Shown: piece after piece, positions 5,241-41,652 of the stretch
Layout: each line of letters starts with the position of its first letter
Position numbering within the stretch: the stretch's first letter is position 1
IMG/VR virus record: IMGVR_UViG_3300043449_001175
Span: 1-64,000 of that record
Origin: a virus
DNA length: 64,000 bases
Strand: one strand, 5' to 3'
Made by a program: the position numbers and the translations under genes
Notes under the pieces: generated by a model
The model's input: only the letters and a program-made list of their open reading frames with translations
Told to the model about the DNA's origin: nothing
Database searches by the model: none

Positions 5241-5263
5241 TATTTATTTAATACAACAAATTG

Positions 5264-15633: not shown

Positions 15634-15635
15634 AA

Positions 15636-16688: not shown

Positions 16689-16699
16689 ATACTTATTAC

Positions 16700-16975
16700 T
16701 TAAAATTTTTCAATTAATTTATTTACCAACATTGTGTTCCACGCAATTTTAAAAGGTATTGTAAGTTGTGATGAAACTTTATTAGCCAGTTTTTCATCAA
16801 TGTCTTCATTTTCACTTAAAATTACTTCTGTTAATGTTTTAATCATTTCATATTTAACAATAGAAATGTGTTGTTCAGGTTCTGTAGACGCTGATACTGG
16901 TGTAGATTGAATATTAACATATTTGTCAATATTATCTAAATTTATGTAGTAGTTTTCACCAAAAAGTGTTATCAT
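16700..16975 (-). CDS. hypothetical protein
   Basis: 91-aa ORF within the operon. Confidence 0.7.
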   Translation of the reverse strand: MITLFGENYYINLDNIDKYVNIQSTPVSASTEPEQHISIVKYEMIKTLTEVILSENEDIDEKLANKVSSQLTIPFKIAWNTMLVNKLIEKF

Positions 16976-18314: not shown

Positions 18315-18351
18315 TAATTATAATTTATGAAAATTAATGATAAAAGAAACA

Positions 18352-20893: not shown

Positions 20894-20894
20894 T

Positions 20895-21542
20895 TTATTT
20901 TTTCTTTAATAGAAAAATACTATTGGAATCAAAATCAGTAAAGTCTTTTAATAAATCATATGTTAAAGTCCCAATAATATCGTATTCTTCCGTATTTAAT
21001 TTTGAGACAATTTCATTTACTGCACCATGTACTTCGGGGCTATATTGAAAATCTAAATAATCGTCAAATGCTATGTATCCACCACTTTTAACCAAACCAA
21101 TATAATTATAAAAATCGTTTAACACTCCATTTGTAGTGTGGTCTCCATCAATAAATAAAAAATCAACTTCATTAATTTCACTTTTAATTTGGTTAACTAT
21201 ATTAATATCTTGGGAATTACCTTGAAAATATTTAAAGGTACTTAATTCATTTTTAAAATTTGCAACATTTCTTTGTACCACTTCAGGATTAATGGGTTCT
21301 CCTAAATCCAAAGTAAAACAATTTGTTGGGTATATATGTGATGCAATTAATGAAATTGAGCCGCCAGCAAATGAACCAATTTCTAAATATGTTATTGGTT
21401 TATCACCAAATTCAGTTCTAATATCATATAAAATATGTGTGTGTTTATGGAATGTGGTGCCTTCCATGGTTTCAGAAATTTTATTAAGTTTTATTAATGA
21501 TTCTTCTGTTATTTTAAATGTATAATTGTTATTTTTGTTCAT
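20895..21542 (-). CDS. class I SAM-dependent methyltransferase (Methyltransf_24-like)
   Basis: LEIGSFAGGS, FIDGDH, GGYIAFDDY. Confidence 0.88.
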   Translation of the reverse strand: MNKNNNYTFKITEESLIKLNKISETMEGTTFHKHTHILYDIRTEFGDKPITYLEIGSFAGGSISLIASHIYPTNCFTLDLGEPINPEVVQRNVANFKNELSTFKYFQGNSQDINIVNQIKSEINEVDFLFIDGDHTTNGVLNDFYNYIGLVKSGGYIAFDDYLDFQYSPEVHGAVNEIVSKLNTEEYDIIGTLTYDLLKDFTDFDSNSIFLLKKK

Positions 21543-22233
21543 ATCCTTCTTCTAAATGTTTACATGTTATTTTATTAATTAAACAACCCGGTCTGTTGAT
21601 ACTTCTTAAATAATCAGACATTCTTTTCCATAAATCAGCATCACCCGGTAAACCAACGTTACCTTCTTCTTCATAAACATTTCTATGTCTTAAAGGAATC
21701 TCCTTAAAATTTATACATACCGATGAATGAATTAAACCTTCTGGTCTTGGGTAAAAGTCACAAATTTCATCAGTAGAATTTACCTCAGGTAAAACTCTAC
21801 CACCAACATAATGTGATTTTGTACATAACCATAGTGCTCCCGTTCTCTCAATTCCCATTTTAAGACTTGATAGATGATTTGGCTCCCATTCATCATCGTG
21901 GTCTAAATGACAAACATAATCATATCCCATCTCCACGGATTTATTTATTCCATAGTTATTTGCGGCGCAACCACCATATTTCCATACTAACCATTTATCC
22001 GTGTATTTGTCTCTTTCTGCAGCTACGGGTAAGTTTTCATAGTACATTCTTTCATTGTCATATGATGAACATATTTCCACAAATTCATCATTATTTTCAT
22101 ACCTGTCACCAATAACAAACACTTTAAAATTTTGATAATCTTGTGCAAAAATAGAATTTAATGCTTTTCTTAAATAAGATGGTGTTGAACCATCATTTCT
22201 TTGGTAGGTGGTAATTACTATACTAAAATTCAT
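21529..22233 (-). CDS. glycosyltransferase GT2
   Basis: SIVITTY, LDHDDEWEPNHL, HSSV, DADLW. Confidence 0.88.
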   Translation of the reverse strand: MNFSIVITTYQRNDGSTPSYLRKALNSIFAQDYQNFKVFVIGDRYENNDEFVEICSSYDNERMYYENLPVAAERDKYTDKWLVWKYGGCAANNYGINKSVEMGYDYVCHLDHDDEWEPNHLSSLKMGIERTGALWLCTKSHYVGGRVLPEVNSTDEICDFYPRPEGLIHSSVCINFKEIPLRHRNVYEEEGNVGLPGDADLWKRMSDYLRSINRPGCLINKITCKHLEEGYEQK

Positions 22234-22961
22234 GATTTAGTTAATGGTTTGTAAATGTATGGATTAGGAAACCCTCTTTCGATAAAATTAGTTTCTAACA
22301 TATTAGTGAATCGGTAATGACAAGACCATCTAATGGTGTCGTTTGTTATATCACCTGACGAGTGTATCAAGAGTGTTGAAAAAATAACAATATCACCCAC
22401 TTCCATTTCAAATTGTATTGGTTCTCCCTCTATTTTTACGGAGGCAAAACCACCAACCGTGTTATAGGGTTGTGGACCTAATTTGTGAGTCTCAGGCCAT
22501 ATTAAAATTGACCCATTTTCTTTATTTACATCAACTAAAGGAACCCACACAACTAATGAGTCCATACTTGATAACATAGATGACCAATCTTGATGTGGGG
22601 GTGTTTTATAATAAACTTCTTCTTTTGCCAATTTAGGGTGATTAAAAAACAATACAGGTCGAGTACAAAGATTTGGTAATTCAATACCCAAATTTTTTAT
22701 TGTATCAATTAATTTTTCTTCAACAGGAAGTTTGTAAAGTTCAATTAATCCTGTTTGAATTATTTTACCACAGTTAATAAAAATTGATTCGTGTTCATTG
22801 AATAATTTTATCATGTTGTCTTTAAATTCACCATCATAACCAAATCTATCAAATTGTATTTGAAAAATTCTTTCGGCCCCTTTTCTTAAATTATCAATAT
22901 AATCTTTTTCAAAGAAGTTTTTAAGAATTACGTATCCTTTTTCTTTAAGTTGTTGTTGCAT
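22230..22961 (-). CDS. phytanoyl-CoA dioxygenase family 2OG-Fe(II) oxygenase
   Basis: PHQD, WVPLVD...NG, GDIVIF...HSSG. Confidence 0.88.
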   Translation of the reverse strand: MQQQLKEKGYVILKNFFEKDYIDNLRKGAERIFQIQFDRFGYDGEFKDNMIKLFNEHESIFINCGKIIQTGLIELYKLPVEEKLIDTIKNLGIELPNLCTRPVLFFNHPKLAKEEVYYKTPPHQDWSSMLSSMDSLVVWVPLVDVNKENGSILIWPETHKLGPQPYNTVGGFASVKIEGEPIQFEMEVGDIVIFSTLLIHSSGDITNDTIRWSCHYRFTNMLETNFIERGFPNPYIYKPLTKS

Positions 22962-23841
22962 AACCTATCCCCGTTTTACCAAAATTATTTCCATTATAAA
23001 ACATAATCATTTCATCTTTTTTATTAATAATAAATGGATAACATGTCATAATGTTATCCCATTCAGATTCTGTTGTAATATCTAAATCAATCTCATTGTT
23101 TTTAACCCAATCAACACCGTTTAACGATGTTGCGGTTTTAATTCGATATGAATGGTCAATGTTGTCTCTATAATTGATTTTGTCTCTAATAGAGTACCAC
23201 ATTTTATATTTACTTTCATTTACAATAACTCTACATGCAGATATACCACCTTCGTTATTTTCTAAAGGAATTGAGACAATTCCTGTCGGAATCCAATCAA
23301 TACCATTTAACGATGTTGCGTATTTTATATCGTAAGTTGGTTCCATCTTACCATCATGTTCAATCCAGTCCAAACAAGATAGATACCACATTTTCCACAC
23401 ACCATTTTCAATTAATATATTGACAGTGCCAATATAACCAGGTTCATCATGTGAAGTGTGAAAAATAGGTCCTTTAGAATATTTTTTCCATGTTTCTCCA
23501 TTATCTTCACTAATGGCTAAACCTAAGTTGTTGTGGTACGGCACATCTATTCTCAAAGACCAACCTATATAGTACATGTACTTTTTATTTTTGTGTGTTA
23601 CAATGTCCGTTGGCATAACTCCTGCCCAATCAAAAGAACCTTTATTACCTAAATTTAAAATAGGGTTAACCGACTCTTTTATTATTTTAGATGGGTTGGA
23701 TTTATCAACGTCAATATACATTGGGTTACTTTTACCATCAATTCTGGTTGAATAGTAGATTCTATAAAAATCATCATATTCATCAACTACAGGTAATTGA
23801 GCGTAATGTTTGTTAAAGATGTTACCTTTCTTTATCCACAT
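22945..23841 (-). CDS. five-bladed beta-propeller glycosidase-like protein (GH32/GH130-like)
   Basis: Repeated YMYY/KMWY..S.DG.(T/D)W blades, FYNGNNFGKTGIG end; likely start MWIKKG at 23841. Confidence 0.75.
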   Translation of the reverse strand: MWIKKGNIFNKHYAQLPVVDEYDDFYRIYYSTRIDGKSNPMYIDVDKSNPSKIIKESVNPILNLGNKGSFDWAGVMPTDIVTHKNKKYMYYIGWSLRIDVPYHNNLGLAISEDNGETWKKYSKGPIFHTSHDEPGYIGTVNILIENGVWKMWYLSCLDWIEHDGKMEPTYDIKYATSLNGIDWIPTGIVSIPLENNEGGISACRVIVNESKYKMWYSIRDKINYRDNIDHSYRIKTATSLNGVDWVKNNEIDLDITTESEWDNIMTCYPFIINKKDEMIMFYNGNNFGKTGIGYATTT

Positions 23842-23842
23842 A

Positions 23843-24502
23843 TTAGTAAACTTCAATTGATTGTTTATCTTGTTTCTTTGCGGGTGAACCCATATATAAT
23901 CCATCTGCTTCGGTAGATTTTGTTATAACTGCACCCATTGCTATTAATGAACCCTCCCCAATAGTTAACCCATCTCTAATTGTTGAATTTACACCGAACC
24001 AAGCTCTTTCTTTAACATGACAATGACCTGATAACACGACATGTGACGTAAAAAACACGTGGTCTTCAATTTTACTATGATGACCAATATGGTTACCACT
24101 CCACATAACAACATTATCGCCAATTTCGGTAAACGGTTGTAATGTATTATCTTCTAAAATAAAACAATTTTCACCTATTTTGTTTCCACATATTGTTGCC
24201 TTTGAAGAAATATAAGAAATATAGGTATATCCTTTTTTCTTACCTTCTTCGTAAATTCTTTTTCTGTTGTTATTCATTTTGGTGCCAGTTATTGGTGCAA
24301 AAAACAAATATTCACTTGGTGAATATATTTTTTCTAATTTTTCAAAAGGTACTACTGGTAATCCTTTGAATTCCGTAACTGACATATAATCTTCATTTAC
24401 CGTGAATGCAACTATTTCATAGTTACTATCGTTAGTTAAATACCAATGTGTTAATTCTGCCAAATCATTTATACCAAAAACCACTACTTTATTTGTAAAC
24501 AT
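23843..24502 (-). CDS. hexapeptide-repeat sugar acetyltransferase (NeuD/PglD-like)
   Basis: IGENCFI, IGDNV, NHIGHH, G.PAK; likely start MFTNK at 24502. Confidence 0.9.
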   Translation of the reverse strand: MFTNKVVVFGINDLAELTHWYLTNDSNYEIVAFTVNEDYMSVTEFKGLPVVPFEKLEKIYSPSEYLFFAPITGTKMNNNRKRIYEEGKKKGYTYISYISSKATICGNKIGENCFILEDNTLQPFTEIGDNVVMWSGNHIGHHSKIEDHVFFTSHVVLSGHCHVKERAWFGVNSTIRDGLTIGEGSLIAMGAVITKSTEADGLYMGSPAKKQDKQSIEVY

Positions 24503-25100
24503 ATGTTGTGTATTCATATAATCCATACTCATTTCTTATTATAAAATTTCTACTTAAATTATTTTTTAAAAACCAACCCAATTCATCTAATGAAACATGA
24601 AATAAATCTTTACGTTCCCAATCAACATGTTTTGACATTAAATTAAAAGCAATTCCTTTATTACATTTATTCCATAATTTTTTAATGACACTTGTAAAAA
24701 AATCCATCATTTCTTCTTGTGATAAATCTCTTTTTTCTGTAAATGTCCCATTACACACTATATAGTCAAAATTTGGTATATTTTCATTTTTTAAAATATC
24801 TAAACGATAAAAATCATTATTTGGAAATTTTAATTTACAAGTATTATAGAACCCATCATTTATATCTAATCCCGAATATTTTATGTTTTTTATTTTTAAA
24901 AATTCAATACGTTGATTTAACGATGCTGTCCCACATCCAAAATCTAATAATGTAATTGGTGTTTTTTCTTTTATCGATTGAATCATAACATCATATCTTT
25001 TATATGTGTCTTCCAATTTTGGCCAATCAACACCTAAATGGGTGTCACCGTGTTCTTTAAAACATTTATCATAATGTTCCGCTAATTTTAAATAACTCAT
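24489..25100 (-). CDS. class I SAM-dependent methyltransferase
   Basis: LLDFGCG, YSGLDI, FDYIVCNG, GIAFN. Confidence 0.88.
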   Translation of the reverse strand: MSYLKLAEHYDKCFKEHGDTHLGVDWPKLEDTYKRYDVMIQSIKEKTPITLLDFGCGTASLNQRIEFLKIKNIKYSGLDINDGFYNTCKLKFPNNDFYRLDILKNENIPNFDYIVCNGTFTEKRDLSQEEMMDFFTSVIKKLWNKCNKGIAFNLMSKHVDWERKDLFHVSLDELGWFLKNNLSRNFIIRNEYGLYEYTTYVYK

Positions 25101-25765
25101 ATTAATTTATAATTTACAATTTGTTTTTGAATGTGTGATTTGTCATACCTAAATAACAAATCCAATATTGATGAATTTTTGTTATCAAAATCAACATTAC
25201 CCATTTTTATAAAATTTAACTCAATGTTATCATTTTTAAAATCTTCTTTATTATACAAAGATTGACCACCTATTGCATTTATATATACATTTGAACCAAA
25301 TTGTTTTGTTATTGATTTTAATCCTTCTTCTTTTTTTAAAGTTGTTAATCCATTTGAAGTGTTTATTATTTTGGTTTGTATATCTAAATAATTACATATT
25401 CTTTTTATTAAATTTAAATTAAATTCAGATATTGTTACTTCTCTATTAATGAATTCTGGTAATATTATATCATTCAAAATAATATTATAATTTGATTCTT
25501 TTGAATATAAATTTTTTAATGTTTTTAAAAAATTAAAAATGTAATTATTTTCAAAATTTACATATATTTCATTACATTTTTTATTTTGACTAGCTCCCCA
25601 AACATTTACATTTATTGGTGTATTATTTTTCAATATATTTCTCGTCATATAACTTCTTTTCATAAATGATACATGGTCTAAATTTACATACGTATTGACA
25701 CAATGTATAAGTTGAAAATACCCAATATATGGAAAAAAATATGGTTGCATTATCCCAATTTTCAT
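25097..25765 (-). CDS. wbqC: WbqC-family protein
   Basis: IMQPYFFPYIGYFQLI, YINAIGG..LY, SILDLLF. Confidence 0.9.
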   Translation of the reverse strand: MKIGIMQPYFFPYIGYFQLIHCVNTYVNLDHVSFMKRSYMTRNILKNNTPINVNVWGASQNKKCNEIYVNFENNYIFNFLKTLKNLYSKESNYNIILNDIILPEFINREVTISEFNLNLIKRICNYLDIQTKIINTSNGLTTLKKEEGLKSITKQFGSNVYINAIGGQSLYNKEDFKNDNIELNFIKMGNVDFDNKNSSILDLLFRYDKSHIQKQIVNYKLI

Positions 25766-25794
25766 ATAAAATTAGTTTCTGTTTTTGAATTTAA

Positions 25795-26436
25795 TTATTG
25801 TTGGTAGACTTTAAATTTTGATAAATCCGGATAACGTAATTCTAAATCTTCATTATGTTTTGGTGTGTTGGTTGCGGTATCGTAAAATTGTGAAATTAAC
25901 AACAAACCTCTCGACGCTAATTCTGGCATCATATAAAAATTCCAACCAATAACCGGATTAATGTCAAAATCATCATTGTGATAACTACATTCATCCCTAC
26001 CACTAAATCTTGCTTTTTTAAACCATTTATATGCATCTTCATTGTCGGTCAATATTGCACCACCTTTACTTAATTTTAAATGTTTGTATGGTCCTGTGAA
26101 TGAAACACACATGTGAGTACCAGGAATATACATATTTGAGGTAAACCTAAGTGCACTATCCCAAACATTAGTTGGGTATAATTGGTATGCGCCTTTAATT
26201 GTGTCACCATCAACGGGTTTAAATTTAACTTTAGCACCTGCGTGAATTATTTCACACGGAACCGATGGATATGTTCTTGAAGGAATTTCAATTTCCATAC
26301 CAGAAACTTTTTCATATGTTAATGCTAAAAATAAAGCATTACTTTGATTATCAACGGTAACAACATATTTTGCTCCCGTATACTCAGACAATTTTTTTTC
26401 AAAATCTTCAGTTATTTTATGTACTCCTTGTGCCAT
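25795..26436 (-). CDS. DegT/DnrJ/EryC1/StrS PLP aminotransferase, short form
   Basis: FEKKLSEYTG, ALFLAL, PSRTY, WDSA, SFTGPYK...GGAILTD, GWNFYM. Confidence 0.85.
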   Translation of the reverse strand: MAQGVHKITEDFEKKLSEYTGAKYVVTVDNQSNALFLALTYEKVSGMEIEIPSRTYPSVPCEIIHAGAKVKFKPVDGDTIKGAYQLYPTNVWDSALRFTSNMYIPGTHMCVSFTGPYKHLKLSKGGAILTDNEDAYKWFKKARFSGRDECSYHNDDFDINPVIGWNFYMMPELASRGLLLISQFYDTATNTPKHNEDLELRYPDLSKFKVYQQ

Positions 26437-26459
26437 TATTTGTAATATATATTTTTTTT

Positions 26460-27986
26460 TTAAAAATCATCTGTATTAAAAAATAAATGTTTTAATTTAT
26501 TAAAATTATTCATAACAAAAGGACCTAAAAAATTTTGATAGTCAAAAATTGTTTTTTTATTTTTTTCTTCAGAGTCATTTCTGGTTTGTGATTCATAATG
26601 GTAGGCCACAGATTTACCGGATAAAAAGTTTTCGTATCCCAACAATATACACCTTAAATTAAGCTCAACATCCTCAAAACACTCTGTATAGTTTTCATTA
26701 TAACCATTTTGTTTTTCAAATAAACCCTTTTTAATCATTAATAACGCTGCCGTGCTACCAATTACATTTTTTGTGTAAGGAGTGTATGAATAATACGAAT
26801 GAAGTGCCGCATGAGTAACACCAAATTGTTTATCTTTGTTTAGGTAACACAAAATACCATTATGTTGAATAGTATTATTTTCATAATGCAGTCTAGCTCC
26901 TACAGTACCAACTTTATTTTTACTCTTATAAATTGATAACATTTCAAAAACAACATTATTTAAAACTTTAATATCGTTATTAGAAAATAATAAAAATTCA
27001 AAGTCCTCAGTAACATAATTTTTTACAACATCATTATTAATTTTTGCAAAATTATAGTAGTCATACTCAATTAAATGAATTTTACATGTAGTTTCATGAT
27101 TTTTAATAAACTCAAGTGTTAATTGTTTTTCTTCGTCAGTTGACCCAGTATCGGCAATAAACACTTCAAATAAATCAGTGTTGCAATGTTCAATATATGA
27201 GTTAATACAATTAAACAATAAATCTAATTTACCTTTTGTTGGTATAATAATGGCGACTTTGCCAGTATTTTTAAGAGGCTTTTCAATTATCTTTTCAAAA
27301 TAAACACTCTCAGGTTTTAAATCTAATGGTAAGTGTTCACCATATTTTTGTAAAAAAACTTCTTTAGATAAATAAAATTCATCATTTGGTTTACCAATTG
27401 ATTTATGAGTTATTTCAAATGAAAAAGTAACACCAAGTTTAACACCATCTAAATAATTTGCTAAACAAAATGGGTGGTCGTAAAAATGGTATTTACCAAT
27501 AGTTTCATCAAACGTATGTTTTATTTTTGTTTTATTAAACGCCATTATCAAACCATCTATAGTTACCACAGGTATTAAAAATGGTACTTTAGCTGAGTAT
27601 TTATTAATCCACTTATTTTGACCATCAGGGTGATGATAAACGTGACCAACCATTGTAAGAGGAGCTCTCTCCCAATAAACACCTGATTCAGGAAAATAAC
27701 AAGAACCGGCTTTACCAATAATTCCATAATCAGGATTATTTTCAAAGTCTTTTATTAATTTTTTACCCCAACCTTGTTCTAATTTTACATCATTATGTAC
27801 ACATACCACAATATCATATATTGATTCACCAATACCTCGGTTATAGATTTGTGCCAATGAAAACTCATTATTATTTTGGTATTCTAAAATTTGTGTATTT
27901 TTTAAACCAACAGTTGTTTCTAAATGTTTTTTAAATACAGAGTTGTATTTGGCATCTTTGTGTGTGGAATATATAATGGTAATCAT
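26460..27986 (-). CDS. two-domain glycosyltransferase (GT-A + GT2)
   Basis: VHNDV and IDG..FYD in N-half; IIIPTK, ADTGS, NNDI, EDVELNLR, HYESQTR in C-half. Confidence 0.88.
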   Translation of the reverse strand: MITIIYSTHKDAKYNSVFKKHLETTVGLKNTQILEYQNNNEFSLAQIYNRGIGESIYDIVVCVHNDVKLEQGWGKKLIKDFENNPDYGIIGKAGSCYFPESGVYWERAPLTMVGHVYHHPDGQNKWINKYSAKVPFLIPVVTIDGLIMAFNKTKIKHTFDETIGKYHFYDHPFCLANYLDGVKLGVTFSFEITHKSIGKPNDEFYLSKEVFLQKYGEHLPLDLKPESVYFEKIIEKPLKNTGKVAIIIPTKGKLDLLFNCINSYIEHCNTDLFEVFIADTGSTDEEKQLTLEFIKNHETTCKIHLIEYDYYNFAKINNDVVKNYVTEDFEFLLFSNNDIKVLNNVVFEMLSIYKSKNKVGTVGARLHYENNTIQHNGILCYLNKDKQFGVTHAALHSYYSYTPYTKNVIGSTAALLMIKKGLFEKQNGYNENYTECFEDVELNLRCILLGYENFLSGKSVAYHYESQTRNDSEEKNKKTIFDYQNFLGPFVMNNFNKLKHLFFNTDDF

Positions 27987-27992
27987 TCTATT

Positions 27993-28592
27993 TTACTTTA
28001 TTCCAGTACTACCGAATCCATTATCCCCCCTATCTTTACCTAAAATTTCAGAAACTTCAATAGGGTTTATCCATCTACCATTTGCTACAGGACAAACACA
28101 AGCTTGAGCAATTTTTTGTCCCTTTTCTACGTAAACGGTATCATGAGTTGAATTATATAGAATAACTTTAACTTCACCATCATATCCTGAGTCAACGGTT
28201 CCAGGTGTGTTTAAAACGGTTAATCCTTGTTTTAATGCTAAACCACTTTTTGGTCTAACTTGAATTTCATAACCGTCTTTAATATTAAACTTTAACCCTG
28301 TTCCAACCAACATTCTTGACAGTGGTGGAATACCAATACTTTCTGTTGAGTGTAAATCGAACCCTGAGTCTGTGGGGTAATTATATTTTGGTGATACTGC
28401 ATCGGGATGACATTTTACAAATTTTAAATCCATCTTTGGGTTTTTTTCAGAAAATGTTTTTTCTAATTCTTTAAGATTAACACCACTAATTTCTTCAACA
28501 CCAATTTCATTGTTCATTTCACCTTGTAGTTGTTTTAATATGTTACTTAGCTCTTCTTGTAACAAGTCCATTTCATCGTTTTCGTTATTCAT
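27993..28592 (-). CDS. dut: dUTPase (trimeric)
   Basis: SGFDL, RPKSGLA, NTPGTVDSGYDGE, KIAQ, RGDNGFGSTG. Confidence 0.96.
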   Translation of the reverse strand: MNNENDEMDLLQEELSNILKQLQGEMNNEIGVEEISGVNLKELEKTFSEKNPKMDLKFVKCHPDAVSPKYNYPTDSGFDLHSTESIGIPPLSRMLVGTGLKFNIKDGYEIQVRPKSGLALKQGLTVLNTPGTVDSGYDGEVKVILYNSTHDTVYVEKGQKIAQACVCPVANGRWINPIEVSEILGKDRGDNGFGSTGIK

Positions 28593-28593
28593 A

Positions 28594-29295
28594 TTATTGT
28601 AATTCTTTTAATTTTTTAATTATGTCAATTAATACCATCACATCTCTTTCACAATATTCTACAATTAAATCAAGTTGATTAAAATCATAATAAGCCTCAT
28701 GTACTCGGTTACCAGTAACCTCACCTTCTTTTGGTGATTTAACACCCATTGCGGCACACATAAGTTCCAATGATGATAATGCAAAGTTGTTTCCCATTTT
28801 CCAAACATCCATGGTATCAATTGCCTTTATTTCCCAAGGCTTGGTATCATAAGATGGGAGTAATGGTGATGGTTTAATACCATTGATAACCATACGTTTA
28901 TTTAATACAGGAATATCAAAGTTTTTAATGTTATGTCCACACAACCAAAAATCTAATTTAAAAACTTTATTAAGAAGTGCGTTAATACCCAATAAGATTT
29001 CTTTCTCATCATCACCTGAAAAAGTTTGTGCGTGTGTTTTTCCATCAGGGCCAACAAAAGCAAAACTTGCACATACTATTTTTGAAAACTCAGGAACAAG
29101 TGCCGCTCGGTTTACAAACACTTGTTGTGGGTCCAATCCTTGGTCTTCAGGAAATCTTTTCTGAAACCAATCAAAATAGTTGTGAAATTGTTTTGTAAGT
29201 GCTGGATGGTTTTGTTCAAGACCATCATAGTCTTTATACAAACCAACAGTTTCAATGTCAAAAAATAATAATTTAGTTAATGGTACCTGTATCAT
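28594..29295 (-). CDS. PolB-related 3'-5' exonuclease (DEDDy)
   Basis: FDIETV, GHNIKNFDIP, KPWE, YCERDV. Confidence 0.88.
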   Translation of the reverse strand: MIQVPLTKLLFFDIETVGLYKDYDGLEQNHPALTKQFHNYFDWFQKRFPEDQGLDPQQVFVNRAALVPEFSKIVCASFAFVGPDGKTHAQTFSGDDEKEILLGINALLNKVFKLDFWLCGHNIKNFDIPVLNKRMVINGIKPSPLLPSYDTKPWEIKAIDTMDVWKMGNNFALSSLELMCAAMGVKSPKEGEVTGNRVHEAYYDFNQLDLIVEYCERDVMVLIDIIKKLKELQ

Positions 29296-30503
29296 ACAAT
29301 AGATTTATAAAATTCTGCTCTTGTTTTAGTAACAACATTTAGGTCGTAAGTATCTTTAACGGTTTCATACAACCTTTCACCCAAGTCATAAGCCCAATTT
29401 GGGTTATCAATGAGTTTCTTTGCGTATTTAAACCAATCACTATGATTTCTACTTTCATCAACCAACAATGCGTTTCCATCAACAAAGTTACCATTTTGTA
29501 ATGAATGTTTCAAGTCAATCGTATATGGACCCACGTTGGAAGCAATCAATGCTTTCTTGTAAAAACCAGCTTCAATAACTTTTAATTGTGATTTAACTCG
29601 GTTAAAGATGTGGTTTTTAATTGGTGCCAAAGATACATCAAATTTTGCGTAGTTTTTAGCGTAGTTTTGAACGGGTCTTGTCCACACACGGTGATAATAT
29701 TCATCAGAAAATTTAGAATAATCTTCTTCTTTAAATTTTAATAAGAAATCTTTATAATCAGGACTTATTAATTTTGCGTTATCCGTAAAAATATTTTCGT
29801 ATTTATACCAAACAGTTTCTTCAGGTTTAATATCTCTTTTAGTTTGTTCTTTTGTTTCAGCATTAATTTCTGTAACAGTTCCTCTAATATCAAAACCACA
29901 TAAATAAACTTGTACTTTTTCTTTGTATGGTTCCATTCTTTGGAATAATCCATCTAACAACATTAAATCATGTAAGTGTGATGAACCACCTAACCAACCA
30001 AATCTTAATTTATCAGATTTAATTGTTGGTTCACAAAACTGAGCTTCTTTTGGATTAATTGCGTTTGGAAATACAAAAACGTTTTTATTGTATTTTCTAA
30101 TTTCATCGGCAAATAATGTTGTAGTTGTTAACACATAGTCAGCAACTTTAATATTATCAACAATTTTTTCGTGAATTTTGTTAACACGAATTAAATCGTG
30201 AATTGGGTGTTCTTTAGTTGGTAGCCAATAATCATCCAAATCCATTACGGTTTTAATACCTTTTGATTTTAAATAATTAACTATGTTTGCGGTGTTTTCG
30301 TAATTACCCGCAATTACTCTATGAAAATGTACAATTTGATAATCATCCCATACCGATGGGTCATTGATATTTAAATCAAAAACAATATCAACGTGAAAAT
30401 CATCAGGATATAAATTTTGTAAAAAAATGTGAGGGTCTACTGAACGGAACTTACCAACACCTGTTCTGTCGGATGGTAATACTAATACTTTTATCTTTGA
30501 CAT
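29292..30503 (-). CDS. glycosyltransferase, GT-B fold
   Basis: DLDDYW, PNAI, GWLGGSSH..DL, DVSLAP...FN..KS.LK.IEAG. Confidence 0.85.
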   Translation of the reverse strand: MSKIKVLVLPSDRTGVGKFRSVDPHIFLQNLYPDDFHVDIVFDLNINDPSVWDDYQIVHFHRVIAGNYENTANIVNYLKSKGIKTVMDLDDYWLPTKEHPIHDLIRVNKIHEKIVDNIKVADYVLTTTTLFADEIRKYNKNVFVFPNAINPKEAQFCEPTIKSDKLRFGWLGGSSHLHDLMLLDGLFQRMEPYKEKVQVYLCGFDIRGTVTEINAETKEQTKRDIKPEETVWYKYENIFTDNAKLISPDYKDFLLKFKEEDYSKFSDEYYHRVWTRPVQNYAKNYAKFDVSLAPIKNHIFNRVKSQLKVIEAGFYKKALIASNVGPYTIDLKHSLQNGNFVDGNALLVDESRNHSDWFKYAKKLIDNPNWAYDLGERLYETVKDTYDLNVVTKTRAEFYKSIV

Positions 30504-33178: not shown

Positions 33179-36007
33179 ATGGCTTATCAGAACATTAACC
33201 AATATGTCTATAAAAAATGGTTTTTATCACCATTTTTAGAAGTTACGGACCTTTCTTTGGCTTCAGATGAACGAGATTATAACGAAGAAGTTATTTTTTC
33301 GCCATATATTATTGGAGCATATGATGGTGATGTATTGCCAGTTAAATTTGATATAAATTTTACAGGAAGTAATCAAAATTTTTCATTAACATACGGAAAT
33401 TATGATTTTGATAACATTTTAGTATCCGAAAATTACTACAACCCAACTGATGTTTTAATAGATTGTTATTCTTCAAAAACAATTTGTGATATTGGATTAA
33501 CAGGTACTGATAACGGATTGGTTACTGGAATGACAGGTCAATCAATAACTTATACAAATGGTTTGTTACCAACAAATGAAAAATTTGATAGATATAAATT
33601 TGATAGGAGATTAAAATTACACCAAGTTACTGGTTACACGTGGACTCCAAACACAAGATTTTCAGGTGTAACGGCAGGAACAGTTTATGATGTGGTATCT
33701 TACAGCGCTCAAACTGTTGGAAATTACCAAGAATTGTATGGTGGTTTTTATCAAGGGTTTTATGAGTTATTTGGTTACGATTATAAAATTTTACCTGAAA
33801 GATATCCAAAAGGGTGGACGGTAGAAATGACTTTAAAGCCGAGATTGTCCAATGCTTATACTCCAAGTTCAGGACAAACAACATTAAATCAATATTACCC
33901 AAATAATGCTGGTATTTTCTTTTATATGGGTACAAGGGCTGAAAATAAATATTGGCACCACGCAGCAGGAACAAATTCAGGCGACCCATCATACTATAGA
34001 ATCACAACACCACTAACAGGTTTAACAAGTTGTTTTTGTGTTGATTTATATCCTAATTATACAACATCGTCAACTACGGTATTTGATTTAACAACAAGCG
34101 GTGAAACATTAACAGTATCTTCAGATTTATCATGGGTTTCAGGTGATACCGCATTAATATATCACGATGATGCACAATATCTTATTGGTACTGTTGTTGG
34201 TTACACATCTGAAACAGGGAATTTTCAATTTGTAACAACAAAACGAGTTGGTTTAGGAACTATATATTTTTCAATTGTAACTAATCCGGGTTATTTAGAA
34301 TATAACGATTCTAATTGTGTGTTAGTATATCCGCCAACAGGAACAACAGATTCACATACTCAAGTAGACCCTTGTTGTTGTCCTGAACCACCAGTTCCAA
34401 TTCCAGAACATAATCCTGAATATGATTCAATGTCAAACGCAATTGCAATTAAATTCAGTGGTGACCCACATAATCCAAAAATTTGTGTAAGAACTTTAAC
34501 AATAACAGGTGATTGTATTTTTTCGGGTTCTTGTGAAACATTGGGTCCTGATTCTGTTACTGGATATTCAATTAACAATTACTGTTCAGAAAGAGGAATT
34601 TACGATAATTGTAGTGGAACTACATACGATGACCAAGAACACTGGGTTTTGGTTGATGTCGTCTTTGAACGATACACGTGGTTAGATACCTGCGATTTAT
34701 ATTATCGTGGAGGTCTTGGAACAATTACAACATTTCCATATACCGCAAGTACGGCTAATAATTCGGTTTCATTAATATCGCCACCAATCACACATTACGA
34801 ATTAATCCCAACAATCGAGGAACTTGTTGAATTAAATAATCTTTGGATATTAGAAAAAATATATCGTAGAGGTAGAATAAAGGTTTATATCAACGGTAGA
34901 ATATTTGATGTATTTGAAGATGTTGAAGAAATTATACCACGTGGTTTATTTGGTCATAAAGAAAATCAAGTCGGAGTACCATTCAATATATCTTGGGGTG
35001 GTGGTACACAAGGACTACACGAAAATTTAATTTTTAGTGCGGTACCAACCAATGATATAAATTACTATACTCAAGACCCTGAATTGTTTCCACCAAACAT
35101 TTTAAGTGGTACAACATTAAGTGGACTCACAACTAATATATTAATTGAACAAAATTTTGCCGGAACTTTTGATGGTGCGATATCAAAGTTTAATATGTAT
35201 GCAAAACCATTATCGGTTCCTGAAATTCAACACAATGCAAGAATTTTAAGACCAATTTATAATTTTTTAAATCCATATTGTTTAGATTGTGGTGCAAATG
35301 TAACACCAACCCCAACACCAACAACAACAGTTACACCAACACCAACCTCAGTTACTCCAACTCCAACACCTACACCATCGGTAACACCAGGTCTTTCACC
35401 AACACCAACCCCAACACCGACAAGTACACCATCACCTTATTTTGCATATCTATTTATAGAACCTCAATCAGGTTCAACTCTTATTGGTGAATACATGTAC
35501 AATTTGGGTTCAACATTCTATGGATTTACAAATAACTCAGCGCCAGACAATGACAACACAAATCCTGACTTATTCAATGATGACATGAATAATTATGTGT
35601 CTTTCTCAGGATGGAGTAATGGTTCATTCCCTTCAGTGAGAACTCAAACAGTTCCACAGTCTTCGGGTGGTGTTGATTCATTTGGTAATTCAATATCGGC
35701 ATATAATTTCACAACACACGAAGTACCAATTAATACAGTTAGTGGTAACTCTTGGTATACGTGGATTATCCCAAATGATGCGATAAATGATGGAATACAA
35801 CAAAAAATTGCTTATAGTGTAAATGGTAATCCAAACGCATTGACAACATCAATTATGGACAGCTCAATTTATTCTAGTACGTTTACTTATACAGGTACTA
35901 CAATTCCTGTTGGTACTTATAGAGTTTACACAACATTTGCTGACTTGTCATTCTATATAAATAACAACTTTAATACCGTATATTTTAAAGGTGATACTGT
36001 AATTTAA
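33179..36007 (+). CDS. large virion protein with LamG/ConA-like region and Thr-Pro linker
   Basis: GWTVEM, KVYINGR, FAGTFDGAISKFNMYAKPLS.PEI; TPTP linker; many [ST]GxT motifs. Confidence 0.7.
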   Translation: MAYQNINQYVYKKWFLSPFLEVTDLSLASDERDYNEEVIFSPYIIGAYDGDVLPVKFDINFTGSNQNFSLTYGNYDFDNILVSENYYNPTDVLIDCYSSKTICDIGLTGTDNGLVTGMTGQSITYTNGLLPTNEKFDRYKFDRRLKLHQVTGYTWTPNTRFSGVTAGTVYDVVSYSAQTVGNYQELYGGFYQGFYELFGYDYKILPERYPKGWTVEMTLKPRLSNAYTPSSGQTTLNQYYPNNAGIFFYMGTRAENKYWHHAAGTNSGDPSYYRITTPLTGLTSCFCVDLYPNYTTSSTTVFDLTTSGETLTVSSDLSWVSGDTALIYHDDAQYLIGTVVGYTSETGNFQFVTTKRVGLGTIYFSIVTNPGYLEYNDSNCVLVYPPTGTTDSHTQVDPCCCPEPPVPIPEHNPEYDSMSNAIAIKFSGDPHNPKICVRTLTITGDCIFSGSCETLGPDSVTGYSINNYCSERGIYDNCSGTTYDDQEHWVLVDVVFERYTWLDTCDLYYRGGLGTITTFPYTASTANNSVSLISPPITHYELIPTIEELVELNNLWILEKIYRRGRIKVYINGRIFDVFEDVEEIIPRGLFGHKENQVGVPFNISWGGGTQGLHENLIFSAVPTNDINYYTQDPELFPPNILSGTTLSGLTTNILIEQNFAGTFDGAISKFNMYAKPLSVPEIQHNARILRPIYNFLNPYCLDCGANVTPTPTPTTTVTPTPTSVTPTPTPTPSVTPGLSPTPTPTPTSTPSPYFAYLFIEPQSGSTLIGEYMYNLGSTFYGFTNNSAPDNDNTNPDLFNDDMNNYVSFSGWSNGSFPSVRTQTVPQSSGGVDSFGNSISAYNFTTHEVPINTVSGNSWYTWIIPNDAINDGIQQKIAYSVNGNPNALTTSIMDSSIYSSTFTYTGTTIPVGTYRVYTTFADLSFYINNNFNTVYFKGDTVI
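35300..35436 (+). repeat. Thr-Pro coding repeat
   Basis: [46 protein letters not shown]. Confidence 0.9.
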
Positions 36008-36114
36008 AATTTATCCTTTACCTCATCACAAGTATTATAAAAAAAGGTTTTTAACAATTAATTTTCCTATTAACTTTTCTATTTCTTTAATTAGTTTTAT
36101 GAAAAACTATTTTA

Positions 36115-37362
36115 ATGAAAATATTTGTTCAAATTGCCTCTTATCGTGACCCACAGTTGGTTCACACAATCAAAAACATGATTGAAAATGCGAAGAAACC
36201 AAAAAATTTACGATTTGGTATTGCAAGACAATTTCATCCCAATGATAAATTTGATGACTTGTCAGAGTACGATAAAGATAAAAGATTCAAAATCATTAAC
36301 ATTCCATACGAAGAATCAAAAGGTGTTTGTTGGGCAAGAAACCTAACACAACAACTTTATGATAATGAAGAATATACACTTCAAATTGATTCTCACATGA
36401 GGTTTGCTCCAAATTGGGATGATGAGATGATTAAGATGATTAAACAACTCCAAAAGAAAGGTCATGAAAAACCATTACTTACAGGTTATGTTTCGTCATT
36501 TGACCCCGACAATGACCCTCAAGGGAGAATGCAAGAGCCATGGAGAATGGCGTTTGACAGATTTATTCCCGAAGGTGCGGTATTCTTCTTACCTGAAACA
36601 ATTCCAGGTTGGCAGAACTTAACAGAACCTGTCACATCTCGTTTCTATTCGGCTCACTACTGTTTCACTTTGGGACAATTCTCAAAAGAAGTACAACACA
36701 ACCCTGAATACTATTTTCACGGTGAAGAAATATCAATTGCCGCTCGTGCTTATACTTGGGGTTATGATTTGTTCCACCCACATAAAGTTTTGATTTGGCA
36801 CGAATATACTCGTAAAGGTAGAACAAAACAATGGGATGACGATAAAGCTTGGGGTGAGAAAAACAAACATTCACATTTTACAAACAGAAAGTTGTTTGGT
36901 ATGGACGGTGAACAACAAGAAGGACATGATGGTCCTTATGGTTTTGGTCCCGTTAGAACATTAAGAGATTACGAAAAGTACTCTGGTTTGTTGTTTGAAA
37001 AACGTGCGGTACAACAATATACTTTGGATAAGAACTACCCACCGAACCCATATAATTTTGAATCTGAAGAAGAGTGGAAGAAAAACTTTGCTCAAGTTTT
37101 CAAACATTGTATTGATATTGGATTCTCTCAAGTACCTGAAAAAGATTATGATTTTTGGGTGGTTGCTTTTCACGGAGAAAATGATGAAACACTTTATAGA
37201 AAAGATGCTGACATCAATGAGATTAATAGAATGTTAAATGACCCTGATGGATATTGTAAAGTATGGAGAGAGTTCCAAACAGAACATAAACCAAAGTATT
37301 GGGTTGTTTGGCCTCACTCAGTATCAAAAGACTGGTGTGAAAGGATTACGGGGAACCTGTAA
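36115..37362 (+). CDS. GT60-like polypeptide/hydroxyproline GlcNAc transferase
   Basis: IFVQIASYRDP, SKGVCWAR, LQIDSHMRF..WD, FHGEE...AR.YT.G.D signatures of the Skp1 GlcNAc-transferase family. Confidence 0.85.
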   Translation: MKIFVQIASYRDPQLVHTIKNMIENAKKPKNLRFGIARQFHPNDKFDDLSEYDKDKRFKIINIPYEESKGVCWARNLTQQLYDNEEYTLQIDSHMRFAPNWDDEMIKMIKQLQKKGHEKPLLTGYVSSFDPDNDPQGRMQEPWRMAFDRFIPEGAVFFLPETIPGWQNLTEPVTSRFYSAHYCFTLGQFSKEVQHNPEYYFHGEEISIAARAYTWGYDLFHPHKVLIWHEYTRKGRTKQWDDDKAWGEKNKHSHFTNRKLFGMDGEQQEGHDGPYGFGPVRTLRDYEKYSGLLFEKRAVQQYTLDKNYPPNPYNFESEEEWKKNFAQVFKHCIDIGFSQVPEKDYDFWVVAFHGENDETLYRKDADINEINRMLNDPDGYCKVWREFQTEHKPKYWVVWPHSVSKDWCERITGNL

Positions 37363-37377
37363 TAATAAAATTAGTTA

Positions 37378-38112
37378 ATGAATATTACTAATATCCCTAA
37401 GTTTGTCGTTAATTTAGAAAGACGACCTGACCGATTAGAACATATCCAAAAAGAAATGGATTATATGGGTTGGGAATACGAGTTATTCAAAGCCGTTGAT
37501 TTAAATAATCATGGTGGTTGTACTTTATCACACACACAAATCATTAAACTTGCCAAAGAACGAGGATATGACTCGGTTATGGTGATTGAAGATGATTGTA
37601 CTTTTTTACCGTATTCGAAGGATTTGATAAATAAAATTGAAACCGAATCTGATGAGTTTGAATTTGGAATTATTAATCTTGCACCAACCTTAAACCGAGT
37701 AGTCAACCGTAGTGAAGAACAACCTTTATTTTTAGATATTACAAATTTACCGCCAAAGAAAGAACATGAAAGAGGTATATTTGCAACTAACATGATAATT
37801 TATCATAGTTCAATTTATGATAAAGTTTTGGAAATGGAAAAAAAAGAAAACTTAGGTTATTATGCAATAGATGATTACATTTATCAATTTGTTTTACCAA
37901 TCAGACAAAGTTATTGTCCAATATTACCAGTTGCCCCTCAAATGAGTAGTTGGTCTGATGTATCTCAAGGACAATACAATAATTTTTATACTCAAACTTA
38001 TAATTGGAATTTATATAGTCCGTGTAAAATACCTTCAGGATATTTACATGGTACATTAACAAACGAACTTAAAACAAATAAACAACATAAAGAATTTACA
38101 TATGTCAGTTAA
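37378..38112 (+). CDS. glycosyltransferase GT25-like
   Basis: VVNLERRPDR, AVD, GCTLSH, VIEDD. Confidence 0.85.
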   Translation: MNITNIPKFVVNLERRPDRLEHIQKEMDYMGWEYELFKAVDLNNHGGCTLSHTQIIKLAKERGYDSVMVIEDDCTFLPYSKDLINKIETESDEFEFGIINLAPTLNRVVNRSEEQPLFLDITNLPPKKEHERGIFATNMIIYHSSIYDKVLEMEKKENLGYYAIDDYIYQFVLPIRQSYCPILPVAPQMSSWSDVSQGQYNNFYTQTYNWNLYSPCKIPSGYLHGTLTNELKTNKQHKEFTYVS

Positions 38113-38983
38113 ATTTATTACATCAATATATAGCGATTTGTATGGTACTGAATACGGTGGTCGAATTGGTAGAGGAGGTCATTATCGATATAGTTTATTA
38201 TCGCTTTTAAAAATGACTAATGCTGATTTTTTATGTTATACATCAGATAGAGAGTTACCTTCATTACTCACATTTTTTTATGAAACACATGGTATATCAT
38301 CAGATAAACTAAAATTTCAAGTGTTTGATATTGCAAATACAAAATTCAAAGATTTAATTAATCAATATAAAGATGTTGAAGTAACTAAAAAATCAGATAG
38401 ATGTATTGAAGTACAATATAGTAAATTCCATTGGTGGTGGAACGAAGATAAGTCTTATGATTATTATTATTGGATTGACGCTGGATTGTCACATTGCGGA
38501 TTAATCCCAGTTAAATACTTGGTTGGTACTCACCCCGAACAAAGATATTATGAATCAACTTTATTCAATAATGATTTTTTGAAGAATCTAATTGAAGATA
38601 CTGGCGATAAATTCTTAATTCTTGGAAAAGAAAATGACCGAAATTATTGGTCAGGCACATTGGACCCTAAATGGTATACTAATTGGGAAAGAGGTGTTCA
38701 TATTATTGGAGGACTATTTGGTGGTCATAGAGATAATTGGGATAAAATTGTTACACTATTTGAAGATTATACTAAAAATGTTATTACTGAGGATAAAGGT
38801 TTACCCCATGAAGAAAATATAATGACATTAATGTACTATAATCATAAAGAATTATTTGAACGTAAACATTTTGATATTTGGTGGTGTAGGGATAATGCAC
38901 CTGCAGGTGTTTCAGATGAAATGTTTGAACAAAATAAAAGTTTTTTTAAAATTTTAGAAGAATTTAATAGAATATATGAGTAA
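38102..38983 (+). CDS. HtrL/WlaTC-like protein (putative glycosyltransferase)
   Basis: YYYWIDAGL, IGGLFGG, EENIM; paralogous to N-half of next gene. Confidence 0.6.
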   Translation: MSVKFITSIYSDLYGTEYGGRIGRGGHYRYSLLSLLKMTNADFLCYTSDRELPSLLTFFYETHGISSDKLKFQVFDIANTKFKDLINQYKDVEVTKKSDRCIEVQYSKFHWWWNEDKSYDYYYWIDAGLSHCGLIPVKYLVGTHPEQRYYESTLFNNDFLKNLIEDTGDKFLILGKENDRNYWSGTLDPKWYTNWERGVHIIGGLFGGHRDNWDKIVTLFEDYTKNVITEDKGLPHEENIMTLMYYNHKELFERKHFDIWWCRDNAPAGVSDEMFEQNKSFFKILEEFNRIYE

Positions 38984-40649
38984 TATAACTTTAGTAACAG
39001 GTCTTTGGAATATTAAGAGAGATGAACTTGGTGAAGGTTGGTCTCGTTCATTCCAACATTATTTGGATAAATTTGAACAACTACTTAAGGTTGAAAATCC
39101 AATGATTATATTTGGTGATTCTGACTTGGAATCATTTGTTTTTGAAAGACGAAACAAAGATAATACAATGTTTATCTCTCGTAGTCAAGAATGGTTCAAA
39201 AACGAATTTTATGACAAAATACAAACAATCAGAACAAATCCTGATTGGTATAATCAAGCAGGTTGGTTACCACAATCAACACAAGCAAGATTAGAAATGT
39301 ACAATCCTTTGGTAATGTCAAAGGTTTTCTTATTAAATGATGCCAAAATTATGGACCCATTTAATTCTGATATGATGTTTTGGATTGATGCTGGTTTAAC
39401 AAATACTGTTCATCCAGGTTATTTTACACACGATAAAGTTTTGGAGAAATTACCTAACTATGTTAATAAATTTTCATTTGTTTGTTTCCCATATCAAGCC
39501 GAAAACGAGATTCACGGATTTAACTTTAATCAAATTAATGGAATTGTTGGTGAAAAGGTAGAAATGGTTGCACGTGGTGGGTTCTTTGGTGGTCCAAAAC
39601 ACACAATAGGAGACATTAACGGGATTTATTACAATTTGTTATCATCCACATTATCTCGTGGACTTATGGGAACTGAGGAGTCAATATTCTCAATCATGTG
39701 TTACAAACACTCCGATTTAATTGATTACTTTGAAATAGAATCTAATGGTTTATTTGGTAAGTTCTTTGAAGATTTGAAAAATGAAACATTAGAAAGAAAA
39801 AACAAACAAGGTTTTACACCAATTAATGACGATTTGAATCCTGATAACGCTGCTTTGTATGTAATTACATTTAATAGTCCAAAACAATTTGAAACATTGA
39901 TTGATTCAATGACTCAATATGACAAAGATTTTTTAGATAAACCAAAAAAGTTTTTATTGAATAACTCATCTGATTTATCAACTACCGAAAGATACTCGGA
40001 ACTTTGTGAAATATATGGTTTTGAACATATCAAGAAAGATAATTTAGGTATTTGTGGTGGTAGACAATGGGTTGCAGAACATTCTGAAGAAAATGGGTTT
40101 GATTTTCATTTTTTCTTCGAGGATGACATGTTCTTTTACCCCCAAAAAGGAGATGTGTGTAGAAACGGATTTAATAGATACGTTTCAAATTTATATAAGA
40201 ACACATTAGAAATAACAAAAAAGAATCATTTTGATTTTTTAAAGTTTAATTACAGTGAGTTTTATGGTGATAATGGTACCCAATGGTCGTGGTACAATGT
40301 TCCACAGAACTTTAGAATAGAACATTGGCCTGAAAAACCAAATTTACCTGTTCACGGTCAAGACCCAAATGCTCCAAGAACAAAATTCAAACATGTAAGA
40401 ACACACAATGGTATTCCATTCGTATCAGGTGAAATTTATTATTGTAACTGGCCACAAGTTGTTACTCGTCATGGTAACAAGAAAATGTTTTTAGAAACAA
40501 CTTGGGCACACCCGTTCGAGCAGACATGGATGAGTTTTATTTTTCAAGAAACAATTAAGGGAAAAATCAATCCCGGACTATTACTTATGACCCCAACTGA
40601 ACATGATAGGTTTGAATTTTATGATGGTTCATTAAGAAAAGAATCTTAA
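38976..40649 (+). CDS. HtrL/YibB-like domain fused to a GT-A-like domain
   Basis: TLVTGLWNI.R, YNPLVMSK, FWIDAGL, RGGFFGG; C-half FFEDDM. Confidence 0.7.
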   Translation: MSNITLVTGLWNIKRDELGEGWSRSFQHYLDKFEQLLKVENPMIIFGDSDLESFVFERRNKDNTMFISRSQEWFKNEFYDKIQTIRTNPDWYNQAGWLPQSTQARLEMYNPLVMSKVFLLNDAKIMDPFNSDMMFWIDAGLTNTVHPGYFTHDKVLEKLPNYVNKFSFVCFPYQAENEIHGFNFNQINGIVGEKVEMVARGGFFGGPKHTIGDINGIYYNLLSSTLSRGLMGTEESIFSIMCYKHSDLIDYFEIESNGLFGKFFEDLKNETLERKNKQGFTPINDDLNPDNAALYVITFNSPKQFETLIDSMTQYDKDFLDKPKKFLLNNSSDLSTTERYSELCEIYGFEHIKKDNLGICGGRQWVAEHSEENGFDFHFFFEDDMFFYPQKGDVCRNGFNRYVSNLYKNTLEITKKNHFDFLKFNYSEFYGDNGTQWSWYNVPQNFRIEHWPEKPNLPVHGQDPNAPRTKFKHVRTHNGIPFVSGEIYYCNWPQVVTRHGNKKMFLETTWAHPFEQTWMSFIFQETIKGKINPGLLLMTPTEHDRFEFYDGSLRKES

Positions 40650-41250: not shown

Positions 41251-41652
41251 ATGGATTTTAATATTAAAAAAAATGCGACATTACCACTTTTAAAAATGCA
41301 AGTGGTTAGAGATGGTAGAAGTGAATACCAATCTTTTATGGATTCTTTGGGTAATGCCTCAATTTTCTTTTCTATGATAAATGAAACATCTGGTATACCA
41401 AAGATTGTTTCAAAACCCGCATATATTACTGAAGTAATTGGTGATGACCCAAACGCATTACCCGAATATTACGTATATTTTAAATTCACCGCTCGTGATA
41501 CAAATACTATTGGTCGTTATGTTGGACAATTTTTGATTAAATATAATAACGGTCTTTTGGGTGGTATTGAAGGAAATCTTATTTTACCTCTAAGAGATGA
41601 GTTATACATCAATGTCCAAGAAAGTTTCATTATAGATAGTCCTTGTTGTTGA
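41251..41652 (+). CDS. BppU-N-like virion protein
   Basis: FNIKKNATLPLL...Y.F...DT...G.Y.GQF.I pattern; late motif upstream. Confidence 0.55.
   Translation: MDFNIKKNATLPLLKMQVVRDGRSEYQSFMDSLGNASIFFSMINETSGIPKIVSKPAYITEVIGDDPNALPEYYVYFKFTARDTNTIGRYVGQFLIKYNNGLLGGIEGNLILPLRDELYINVQESFIIDSPCC

Follow-up and report, generated by a model that had tools for sequence, protein, structure and literature searches.

Why does one short residue pattern, serine or threonine, glycine, any residue and then serine or threonine again ([ST]-G-x-[ST]), crowd the structural proteins of an uncultured phage? The question is raised by a gene at 33179–36007 (+) in the first 64,000 nucleotides of IMG/VR record IMGVR_UViG_3300043449_001175. 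This stretch, the window, is the first part of a 99,138-bp viral contig (~34% complete by CheckV), and the gene encodes a 942-residue virion protein that probably serves as a fibre or in receptor binding. A preliminary description of the window had counted about 17 copies of the pattern in this protein against about 3 expected, and had proposed a modification sequon. All 17 tetrapeptides are present, against an expectation of 3.12 from 2000 whole-protein shuffles, the measure used for each protein below (z 8.1; 0/2000 shuffles reach 17), and 13 of the 17 end in threonine ([ST]G.T). We tentatively read the pattern, in its sharper form hydrophobic-[ST]-G-x-T, as a tag recognized by some modifying enzyme of the phage, for which an O-glycosyltransferase is the most plausible candidate, and give this explanation somewhat less than an even chance.

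The pattern is also abundant in several other virion proteins, as the preliminary description had largely foreseen. The 1064-residue tail sheath (51255–54449, +; Pfam Phage_sheath_1 and 1C, phrog_23), said to hold more than a dozen copies mostly in an inserted region, has 16 against 3.11 expected (z 7.5), 13 of them at residues 127–345. The open reading frame (ORF) at 8515–9999 (−) has the 6 that were estimated, against 1.02 expected, and the major capsid protein (3113–4954) shows a weaker excess of 4 against 1.26 (p 0.03), all four within an insertion at residues 114–339 where several had been placed. The DNA polymerase has none, as stated, with 0.6 expected. One protein has to be removed from the group, since the 5 copies in ORF 58738–63597 compare with 3.6 expected and represent no enrichment. 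Outside the window, the contig has a further six enriched large ORFs, all downstream of the gene for baseplate J; they include 93314–96052, with 24 copies against 7.9 expected (20 being [ST]G.T), as well as 88340–89419, 85889–87580, 80835–85889 and 96434–97426.

Pooled over 12 virion proteins, 109 copies are found where 32 are expected by whole-protein shuffling and 36 when shuffling is confined to windows of 15 residues; local richness in serine, threonine and glycine is thus no explanation, and composition bias is rejected as a cause. The contrast between structural and non-structural proteins also holds under shuffling. In ten virion proteins, leaving aside the protein with SprB repeats (93314–96052) and a paralogue, there are 62 [ST]G.T motifs against 11.9 (z 16, about 5-fold), whereas the 41 non-virion ORFs of this phage are neutral (5 against 4.5). 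Homologues of the DNA polymerase across the clade give 2 against 14, counted over copies that are not independent. Codon use within the motif does not differ from the genome background, indicating that selection acts at the protein level, and a signal in the DNA was likewise rejected.

The excess is specific to particular residues. TG.T occurs 51 times against 10.6 expected and SG.T 38 times against 7.8, whereas [ST]G.S reaches merely 20 against 14, and the sharper motif is hydrophobic-[ST]-G-x-T. At the position before the motif (−1) I, Y, V, F and L are favoured, and K, R and E are never seen. Serine (4.9-fold) and threonine (4.8-fold) are equivalent at position 0, where D reaches 1.8-fold and N 0.56-fold; glycine at position 1 is enriched 4.8-fold with alanine at 1.9-fold; at position x P, I, F, R and K are not favoured; and at +3 threonine is enriched 4.8-fold with serine at 1.5-fold. 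The flanks beyond −1 have almost no signal in common. Permuted patterns are flat ([ST].G[ST], [ST]G..[ST], and G[ST].[ST] with 27 against 32), and G-x-T is enriched solely after S or T, any other residue before the glycine giving at most 1.8-fold. The motif was described as distinct from the Bacteroidota D-[ST]-x sequon, and this is borne out: D-[ST]-[AILVMT] is unenriched (48 against 44.3), as is the N-glycosylation sequon N-x-[ST] (159 against 166.7; 167 against 176.6 in a second count).

The carriers are largely unrelated to one another, as the preliminary description had supposed. An all-versus-all BLAST comparison finds one paralogous pair only, in which the C-terminal domain of the 942-residue protein (35438–36007) is 66% identical to the C-terminal part of the 330-residue product of 96434–97426, with three motif sites in common; an hhalign comparison of the 942-residue and sheath families gives a probability of 0.1%. 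The duplicated domain looks like an exchangeable tip module, and the 330-residue protein also has a Thr-Pro linker.

Nor is the excess a general trait of myovirus virions. T4 virion proteins have 31 copies against 26.7 expected. Scored as the observed/expected ratio of [ST]G.T in S/T-rich ORFs of at least 300 residues, this phage stands at 4.06, compared with 1.5 for Flavobacterium phage immuto, 0.52 for Mel-JY01, 1.48 for RM378, 1.84 for HTVC008M, 0.6 for LR756508 and 0.97 for T4. Two phages encoding a glycosyltransferase (GT) of family GT60, XacN1 and RAS14, score 0.93 and 0.59, with no single ORF significant. S-CBWM1 reaches 3.44, owing entirely to two collagen-like tail fibres rich in GATGAT. 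A generic virion trait is rejected, T4 and six other phages being without the excess, which is restricted to this clade and is both lineage-specific and residue-specific, as a sequon would be.

Within the carriers the motifs cluster in discrete sub-domains that are lineage-specific, outward additions to conserved cores. The sheath core (residues ~676–1053) aligns with residues 267–653 of T4 gp18 (PDB gp18, E 4e-36), and 13 motifs, approximately one per 17 residues, lie in a sub-domain of the sheath insertion at residues 127–348 (51633–52298, +); the remainder of the insertion (residues 350–660) contains none. An AlphaFold2 (AF2) model of the sheath was set aside, with a mean predicted local distance difference test (pLDDT) score of 32.5 from an alignment that was shallow and held no sequence below 72% identity. 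The insertion with all four capsid motifs (3452–4129, +) precedes the PF07068 match (residues 358–600) in this gp23-like protein. The 494-residue product of ORF 8515–9999, which has no family match, carries its six motifs in the N-terminal half (residues 67–239; 9283–9801, −) and none in the C-terminal half. The same half also has a conspicuous number of N-x-T/S tripeptides, although N-x-[ST] shows no enrichment over the virion proteins as a whole. Beyond the window, the fibre-like product of 93314–96052 has five SprB repeat stretches (PF13573, E 6.4e-26), a Thr-Pro linker, and weak matches to Hoc-like and type IX secretion system (T9SS) sorting-domain models.

The 942-residue protein is composed of a lectin-like ConA/LamG jelly-roll body (residues ~40–708), a Thr-Pro linker and a variable C-terminal domain, and some of its homologues match PF13385. 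Its AF2 model has a mean pLDDT of 78.6. VIA-align matches the modelled fold to the tailspike of cyanopodophage Pan3 (Z 14.8) and to CBM40 and lectin-like jelly rolls (Z 11–14); Foldseek finds no match to the model in the PDB at E ≤ 0.001, and the predicted jelly-roll similarity is at the level of fold only.

What would a tag on these proteins do? When a residue-specific excess arises convergently in unrelated proteins within one lineage, a shared reader is indicated, and O-glycosylation is the leading candidate because the contig, about 34% of a genome, carries at least 12 glycosyltransferase-like ORFs. Several of these are in a glycan-building island (14827–30503, −) with several GT2, GT11, GT4-like and UDP-glucose dehydrogenase-like genes, a DegT aminotransferase, WbqC, a hexapeptide acetyltransferase, methyltransferases and a PhyH dioxygenase, interleaved with PhoH, dUTPase and exonuclease genes. 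The tag would lie on putatively exposed loops of the outer virion proteins, namely the sheath and capsid insertions and the distal baseplate and fibre proteins, and would be read by a trans-acting phage factor, most plausibly a soluble, cytoplasmic phage glycosyltransferase acting on folded or folding structural proteins. This enzyme would attach a sugar to one or other of the motif's two hydroxyl residues, and other enzymes of the glycan island could then extend it. The existence of a reader, its nature as a glycosyltransferase and the residue modified are all things that we infer, and the narrower proposition, that the motif is a true O-glycosylation sequon read by a soluble phage glycosyltransferase on virion proteins, is one we hold with more reserve, as a rather doubtful possibility.

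Several observations weigh against a recognition tag, and the first of these concern its writer. Directly downstream of the 942-residue gene is a four-gene glycosyltransferase module (36115–40649, +) comprising a GT60-like gene (36115–37362), a GT25-like gene, 38102–38983 and an HtrL_YibB-like gene (38976–40649). The GT60-like product matches PF11397 at E 1.1e-67 (229 bits, cut-off 21), and among deposited phages its homologues are confined to four jumbo phages, XacN1, Xoo-sp13, CM1 and RAS14 (44–47% identity). Three of the four genes are common to XacN1, where ORF334, ORF332 and ORF330 are 47%, 31% and 41% identical to their counterparts here. XacN1 and RAS14 have GT60 and two of its module partners, and the motif excess is absent from both. 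Across 80 related loci, the excess does not change with the presence or absence of GT25-like, GT4-like, 38102 or HtrL-like genes at the locus. It is unlikely that the GT60-like enzyme writes [ST]-G-x-T, no transferase seen in the relatives' loci tracks the motif, and no writer can be named; the earlier suggestion that phage glycosyltransferases write the sequon therefore receives no direct support. The HtrL_YibB-like protein has a weak match, below cut-off, to TET-associated DNA glycosyltransferase (TAGT; E 1.3e-4), and the GT60 module is near the DNA polymerase gene both here and in XacN1, so that these glycosyltransferases might act on DNA. Searches of PDB sequences gave no match for the GT60-like and HtrL-like proteins, and for the two-domain GT2 protein only chondroitin synthase (E 8e-4). 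To our knowledge no glycosyltransferase uses an [ST]-G-x-T sequon, and our literature search found no paper on one.

The module more plausibly has a different acceptor. ORFs with Thr-Pro linkers number four in this third of a genome, 15 in XacN1 and 12 in RAS14, and are lacking in seven GT60-negative phages. Since GT60 tracks these linkers, and XacN1 and RAS14 are without the motif excess, the GT60 module most plausibly serves the linkers and not the tetrapeptide. Dictyostelium Gnt1 and pp-GlcNAcT2 are GT60 polypeptide alpha-GlcNAc transferases. In mucin initiation in Trypanosoma cruzi, GT60 enzymes prefer threonine in mucin-like sequence (PMC3769586). The sequences here suggest that the products of 36115–40649 may glycosylate such linkers, for example the mucin-like Thr-Pro segment at residues 708–752 of the 942-residue protein (35300–35434, +; pLDDT below 50), which, as a candidate acceptor, appears to suit the GT60-like enzyme better than the tetrapeptide does. 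A second potential acceptor is the 467-residue, 33% threonine product of 5261–6664 (+), encoded directly after the capsid gene, which has about 270 residues of T-E-T-P-T-N-T-P-T-type repeats and resembles a stalk or decoration protein of mucin-like type; it contains no [ST]G.[ST].

The pattern of conservation also counts in part against a tag. In 20 sheath sub-lineages, 47–62% identical across the insertion, sites 221, 252, 318 and 345 are kept in 20/20 and site 139 in 19/20, with serine and threonine interchanging and x free; four further sites are intermediate and some 16 columns are lineage-specific. About nine conserved positions explain the excess in the sheath insertion. The lineage-specific extras are near chance (2–3 per protein), so that there is no clear turnover of sequons. 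Most of the sheath excess is at fixed positions, and a structural residue would behave alike. Of 120 homologues of the 942-residue protein (44–97% identical), 97–100% retain sites 119, 151 and 461, and 75–83% retain sites 162, 307 and 643. Motif serines and threonines are somewhat more conserved than other serines and threonines (p ~0.03), and motif glycines are no more conserved than other glycines. In favour of a tag, homologues retain the hydroxyls by exchanging serine and threonine while x varies: in this family 54% of the replacements at +3 bring in the alternative hydroxyl residue, compared with 24% at other serines and threonines, and the difference is smaller in the sheath; both counts are of non-independent events. 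There is also no avoidance of the motif by the genome's own enzymes, judging by the neutral non-virion count, and the hydrophobic −1 residue, together with an often hydrophobic x, suggests a motif that is built into the fold. The proposal of a modification sequon stands in part: unrelated carriers, specificity for residue and lineage, and the many glycosyltransferases speak for it, and the untracked writer and the fixed sheath sites speak against it.

These points lead to the strongest alternative, which we regard as quite possible, that the motif is purely structural, being neither read nor modified. In that case it would serve as a loop-to-strand cap or a glycine bulge, in which the hydrophobic residue ends one element, the S/T-G pair turns and the threonine starts a strand, and it would be favoured by the beta-rich surface domains of this lineage. 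The AF2 model of the 942-residue protein is partly in accord with this, as the motif sites are in confidently folded parts outside the disordered linkers, and the +3 residue falls within one residue of a modelled strand start in 5/17 motifs compared with 16/141 other serines and threonines (p 0.054). On the side of a tag, S/T(0) and G(+1) are outside regular secondary structure in 15 of the 17 motifs, and the predicted settings are mixed, with five directly before a strand, two helix caps, one within a strand and the rest in loops. Threonine far in excess of serine at +3 fits beta-propensity, and parity of the two at position 0 fits a loop; both would also be expected of a structural cap. SprB repeats hold [ST]GGT within a known fold signature, and the mild general excess of 1.2–2x in all control phages indicates that some structural preference for the pattern exists. 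However, the beta-rich virion proteins of T4 (Hoc, gp18 and fibres) and of six other phages manage without the motif, and the usual turn formers are unenriched (Asn-Gly 54 against 68, Asp-Gly 61 against 48). Asn and Asp do not substitute for S/T at position 0, V and I are not the chief replacements at +3, and convergence without a common reader would be required of ten non-homologous proteins encoded by a single genome.

An unlikely second alternative is that diverged beta-sandwich or repeat modules (SprB, Ig-like or lectin-like) have spread among the carriers by domain shuffling, leaving the motif as an inherited signature of cryptic shared domains. There are precedents for this on the contig itself, in that the SprB repeats of 93314–96052 contain [ST]GGT-x-P-Y, the tip-module pair has kept common motif sites, and the motifs are confined to discrete sub-domains. 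However, the SprB repeats account for only 3–6 of the 20 [ST]G.T in that protein, and the 5-fold excess persists after this protein and the paralogue are removed. Moreover, the BLAST and hhalign comparisons reveal no further relation among carriers, the flanks are almost free of signal, and the sheath insertion is too densely populated for a signature occurring once per domain. Slightly less likely still is that the motif is read for something other than glycosylation, such as a phosphorylation-like modification, docking of a chaperone or decoration protein, or binding of host polysaccharide by surface threonine arrays, which draws on the same arguments of specificity and lineage as a glycosylation tag and on the carbohydrate-binding type of fold predicted for the 942-residue body, but no kinase or other protein-modifying enzyme was seen among the ORFs scanned, and as candidate writers glycosyltransferases far outnumber anything else.

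Three other loci with related patterns were noted. ORFs that best match 41251–41652, a 133-residue ORF before the DNA polymerase gene, have 45 [ST]G.T against 17.6 in 79 related loci; the copy in the window has none, and many of the relatives' ORFs are longer. Pelagibacter phage HTVC008M encodes a 1016-residue ORF (33435–36485) with 11 [ST]G.T against 2.2 expected, arising from a repeated unit of the I-T-G-x-T-S-G-x-T type, which is a different, repeat-borne source. In Synechococcus phage S-CBWM1 the two GATGAT-rich proteins are annotated tail fibres of collagen-like G-x-y repeats, one of them adjoining an annotated GT1 glycosyltransferase, and this may be BclA-like Gly-x-Thr glycosylation in a cultured cyanophage.

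The phage itself is a distant T4-like myovirus of ~32% G+C, an uncultured freshwater jumbo phage. The CheckV estimate implies a full genome probably near 290 kb, and relatives lie on contigs of up to 295 kb. The nearest deposited capsid proteins, at 41–43% identity, are those of an uncultured huge phage and of immuto. Metagenomic relatives are very common, the sheath query recovering 513 viral stretches and the 942-residue protein more than 1500 homologues. The SprB repeats of 93314–96052 point to a Bacteroidota host.

If the motif is indeed a sequon, it would be the first glycosylation signal defined by sequence for tailed-phage virions, would allow glycan-coated phages to be predicted from sequence alone in a very abundant freshwater clade, and would provide a short tag with which glycosylated phage particles could be engineered. 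Such a sugar covering of sheath, capsid and fibres would influence which hosts are infected, how well defences and grazers are evaded and how stable the particle is; with mucin-type glycosylation of the linkers it would amount to a sequence-programmed coat across a clade of Bacteroidota-infecting jumbo phages. Should the motif prove merely structural, a lineage-wide four-residue loop signature in unrelated proteins would still be unusual.

Several known systems resemble parts of this picture. Mucin initiation by GT60 enzymes is matched by the PF11397 enzyme and by Thr/Pro-rich, mucin-like acceptors, both here and in every GT60-positive phage tested; the characterised enzymes need no [ST]-G-x-T, however, and the family explains the linkers and not the tetrapeptide. 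XacN1 has the GT60-like ORF334 with two neighbouring genes at 31–47% identity and many proteins with Thr-Pro linkers, but differs in showing no [ST]G.T excess in any ORF, in its host phylum, and in a G+C content of 50%. Gly-x-Thr glycosylation is found in collagen-like exosporium proteins, as in Bacillus BclA and in C. difficile BclA3 with SgtA. The S-layer protein of Kuenenia has a putative G-[ST]-x site (PMC5088730). Both cases are bacterial O-glycosylation with a glycine close to the modified threonine or serine, but the carriers in this phage have no collagen triplet repeats, and a BclA-type Gly-x-Thr sequon fits badly where G-x-T is enriched only after S or T. At least two virion bands of XacN1, the distant phage with which the GT60 module is shared, are positive with periodic acid-Schiff, a glycoprotein stain (PMC5852040, Fig. 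S4), an observation in favour of the glycosylation reading.

Possible genomic counterparts are the moraphages, large aquatic Bacteroidota phages with four core glycosyltransferase orthogroups (PMC12619734). Their genomes are 200–307 kb, they come largely from freshwater, their predicted hosts are Flavobacteriia, and they carry several conserved glycosyltransferases of unknown target; the contig described here, with about 34% of a genome, has relatives on contigs of up to 295 kb, and its SprB repeats fit the Bacteroidota hosts predicted for that lineage (PMC12619734). The two accounts differ in that the moraphage paper gives neither a motif nor virion chemistry.

A functional parallel is in mycobacteriophages, where the phage's own soluble glycosyltransferases are likewise proposed to decorate capsid and tail proteins in the cytoplasm. 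Such virion O-glycosylation by phage-encoded glycosyltransferases was reportedly described by Freeman et al. in 2023 (Cell Host Microbe 31:1216), a study cited in PMC12619734 and PMC12801897. According to PMC12619734, the mycobacteriophage glycans are carried by the C-terminal portions of capsid and tail-tube subunits. In the phage described here, in contrast, the candidate sites form a four-residue motif, read from sequence alone, that is dispersed through loops, predicted to be folded, in the sheath, fibres and capsid insertion, and the hosts are probably of the Bacteroidota type rather than Actinobacteria.

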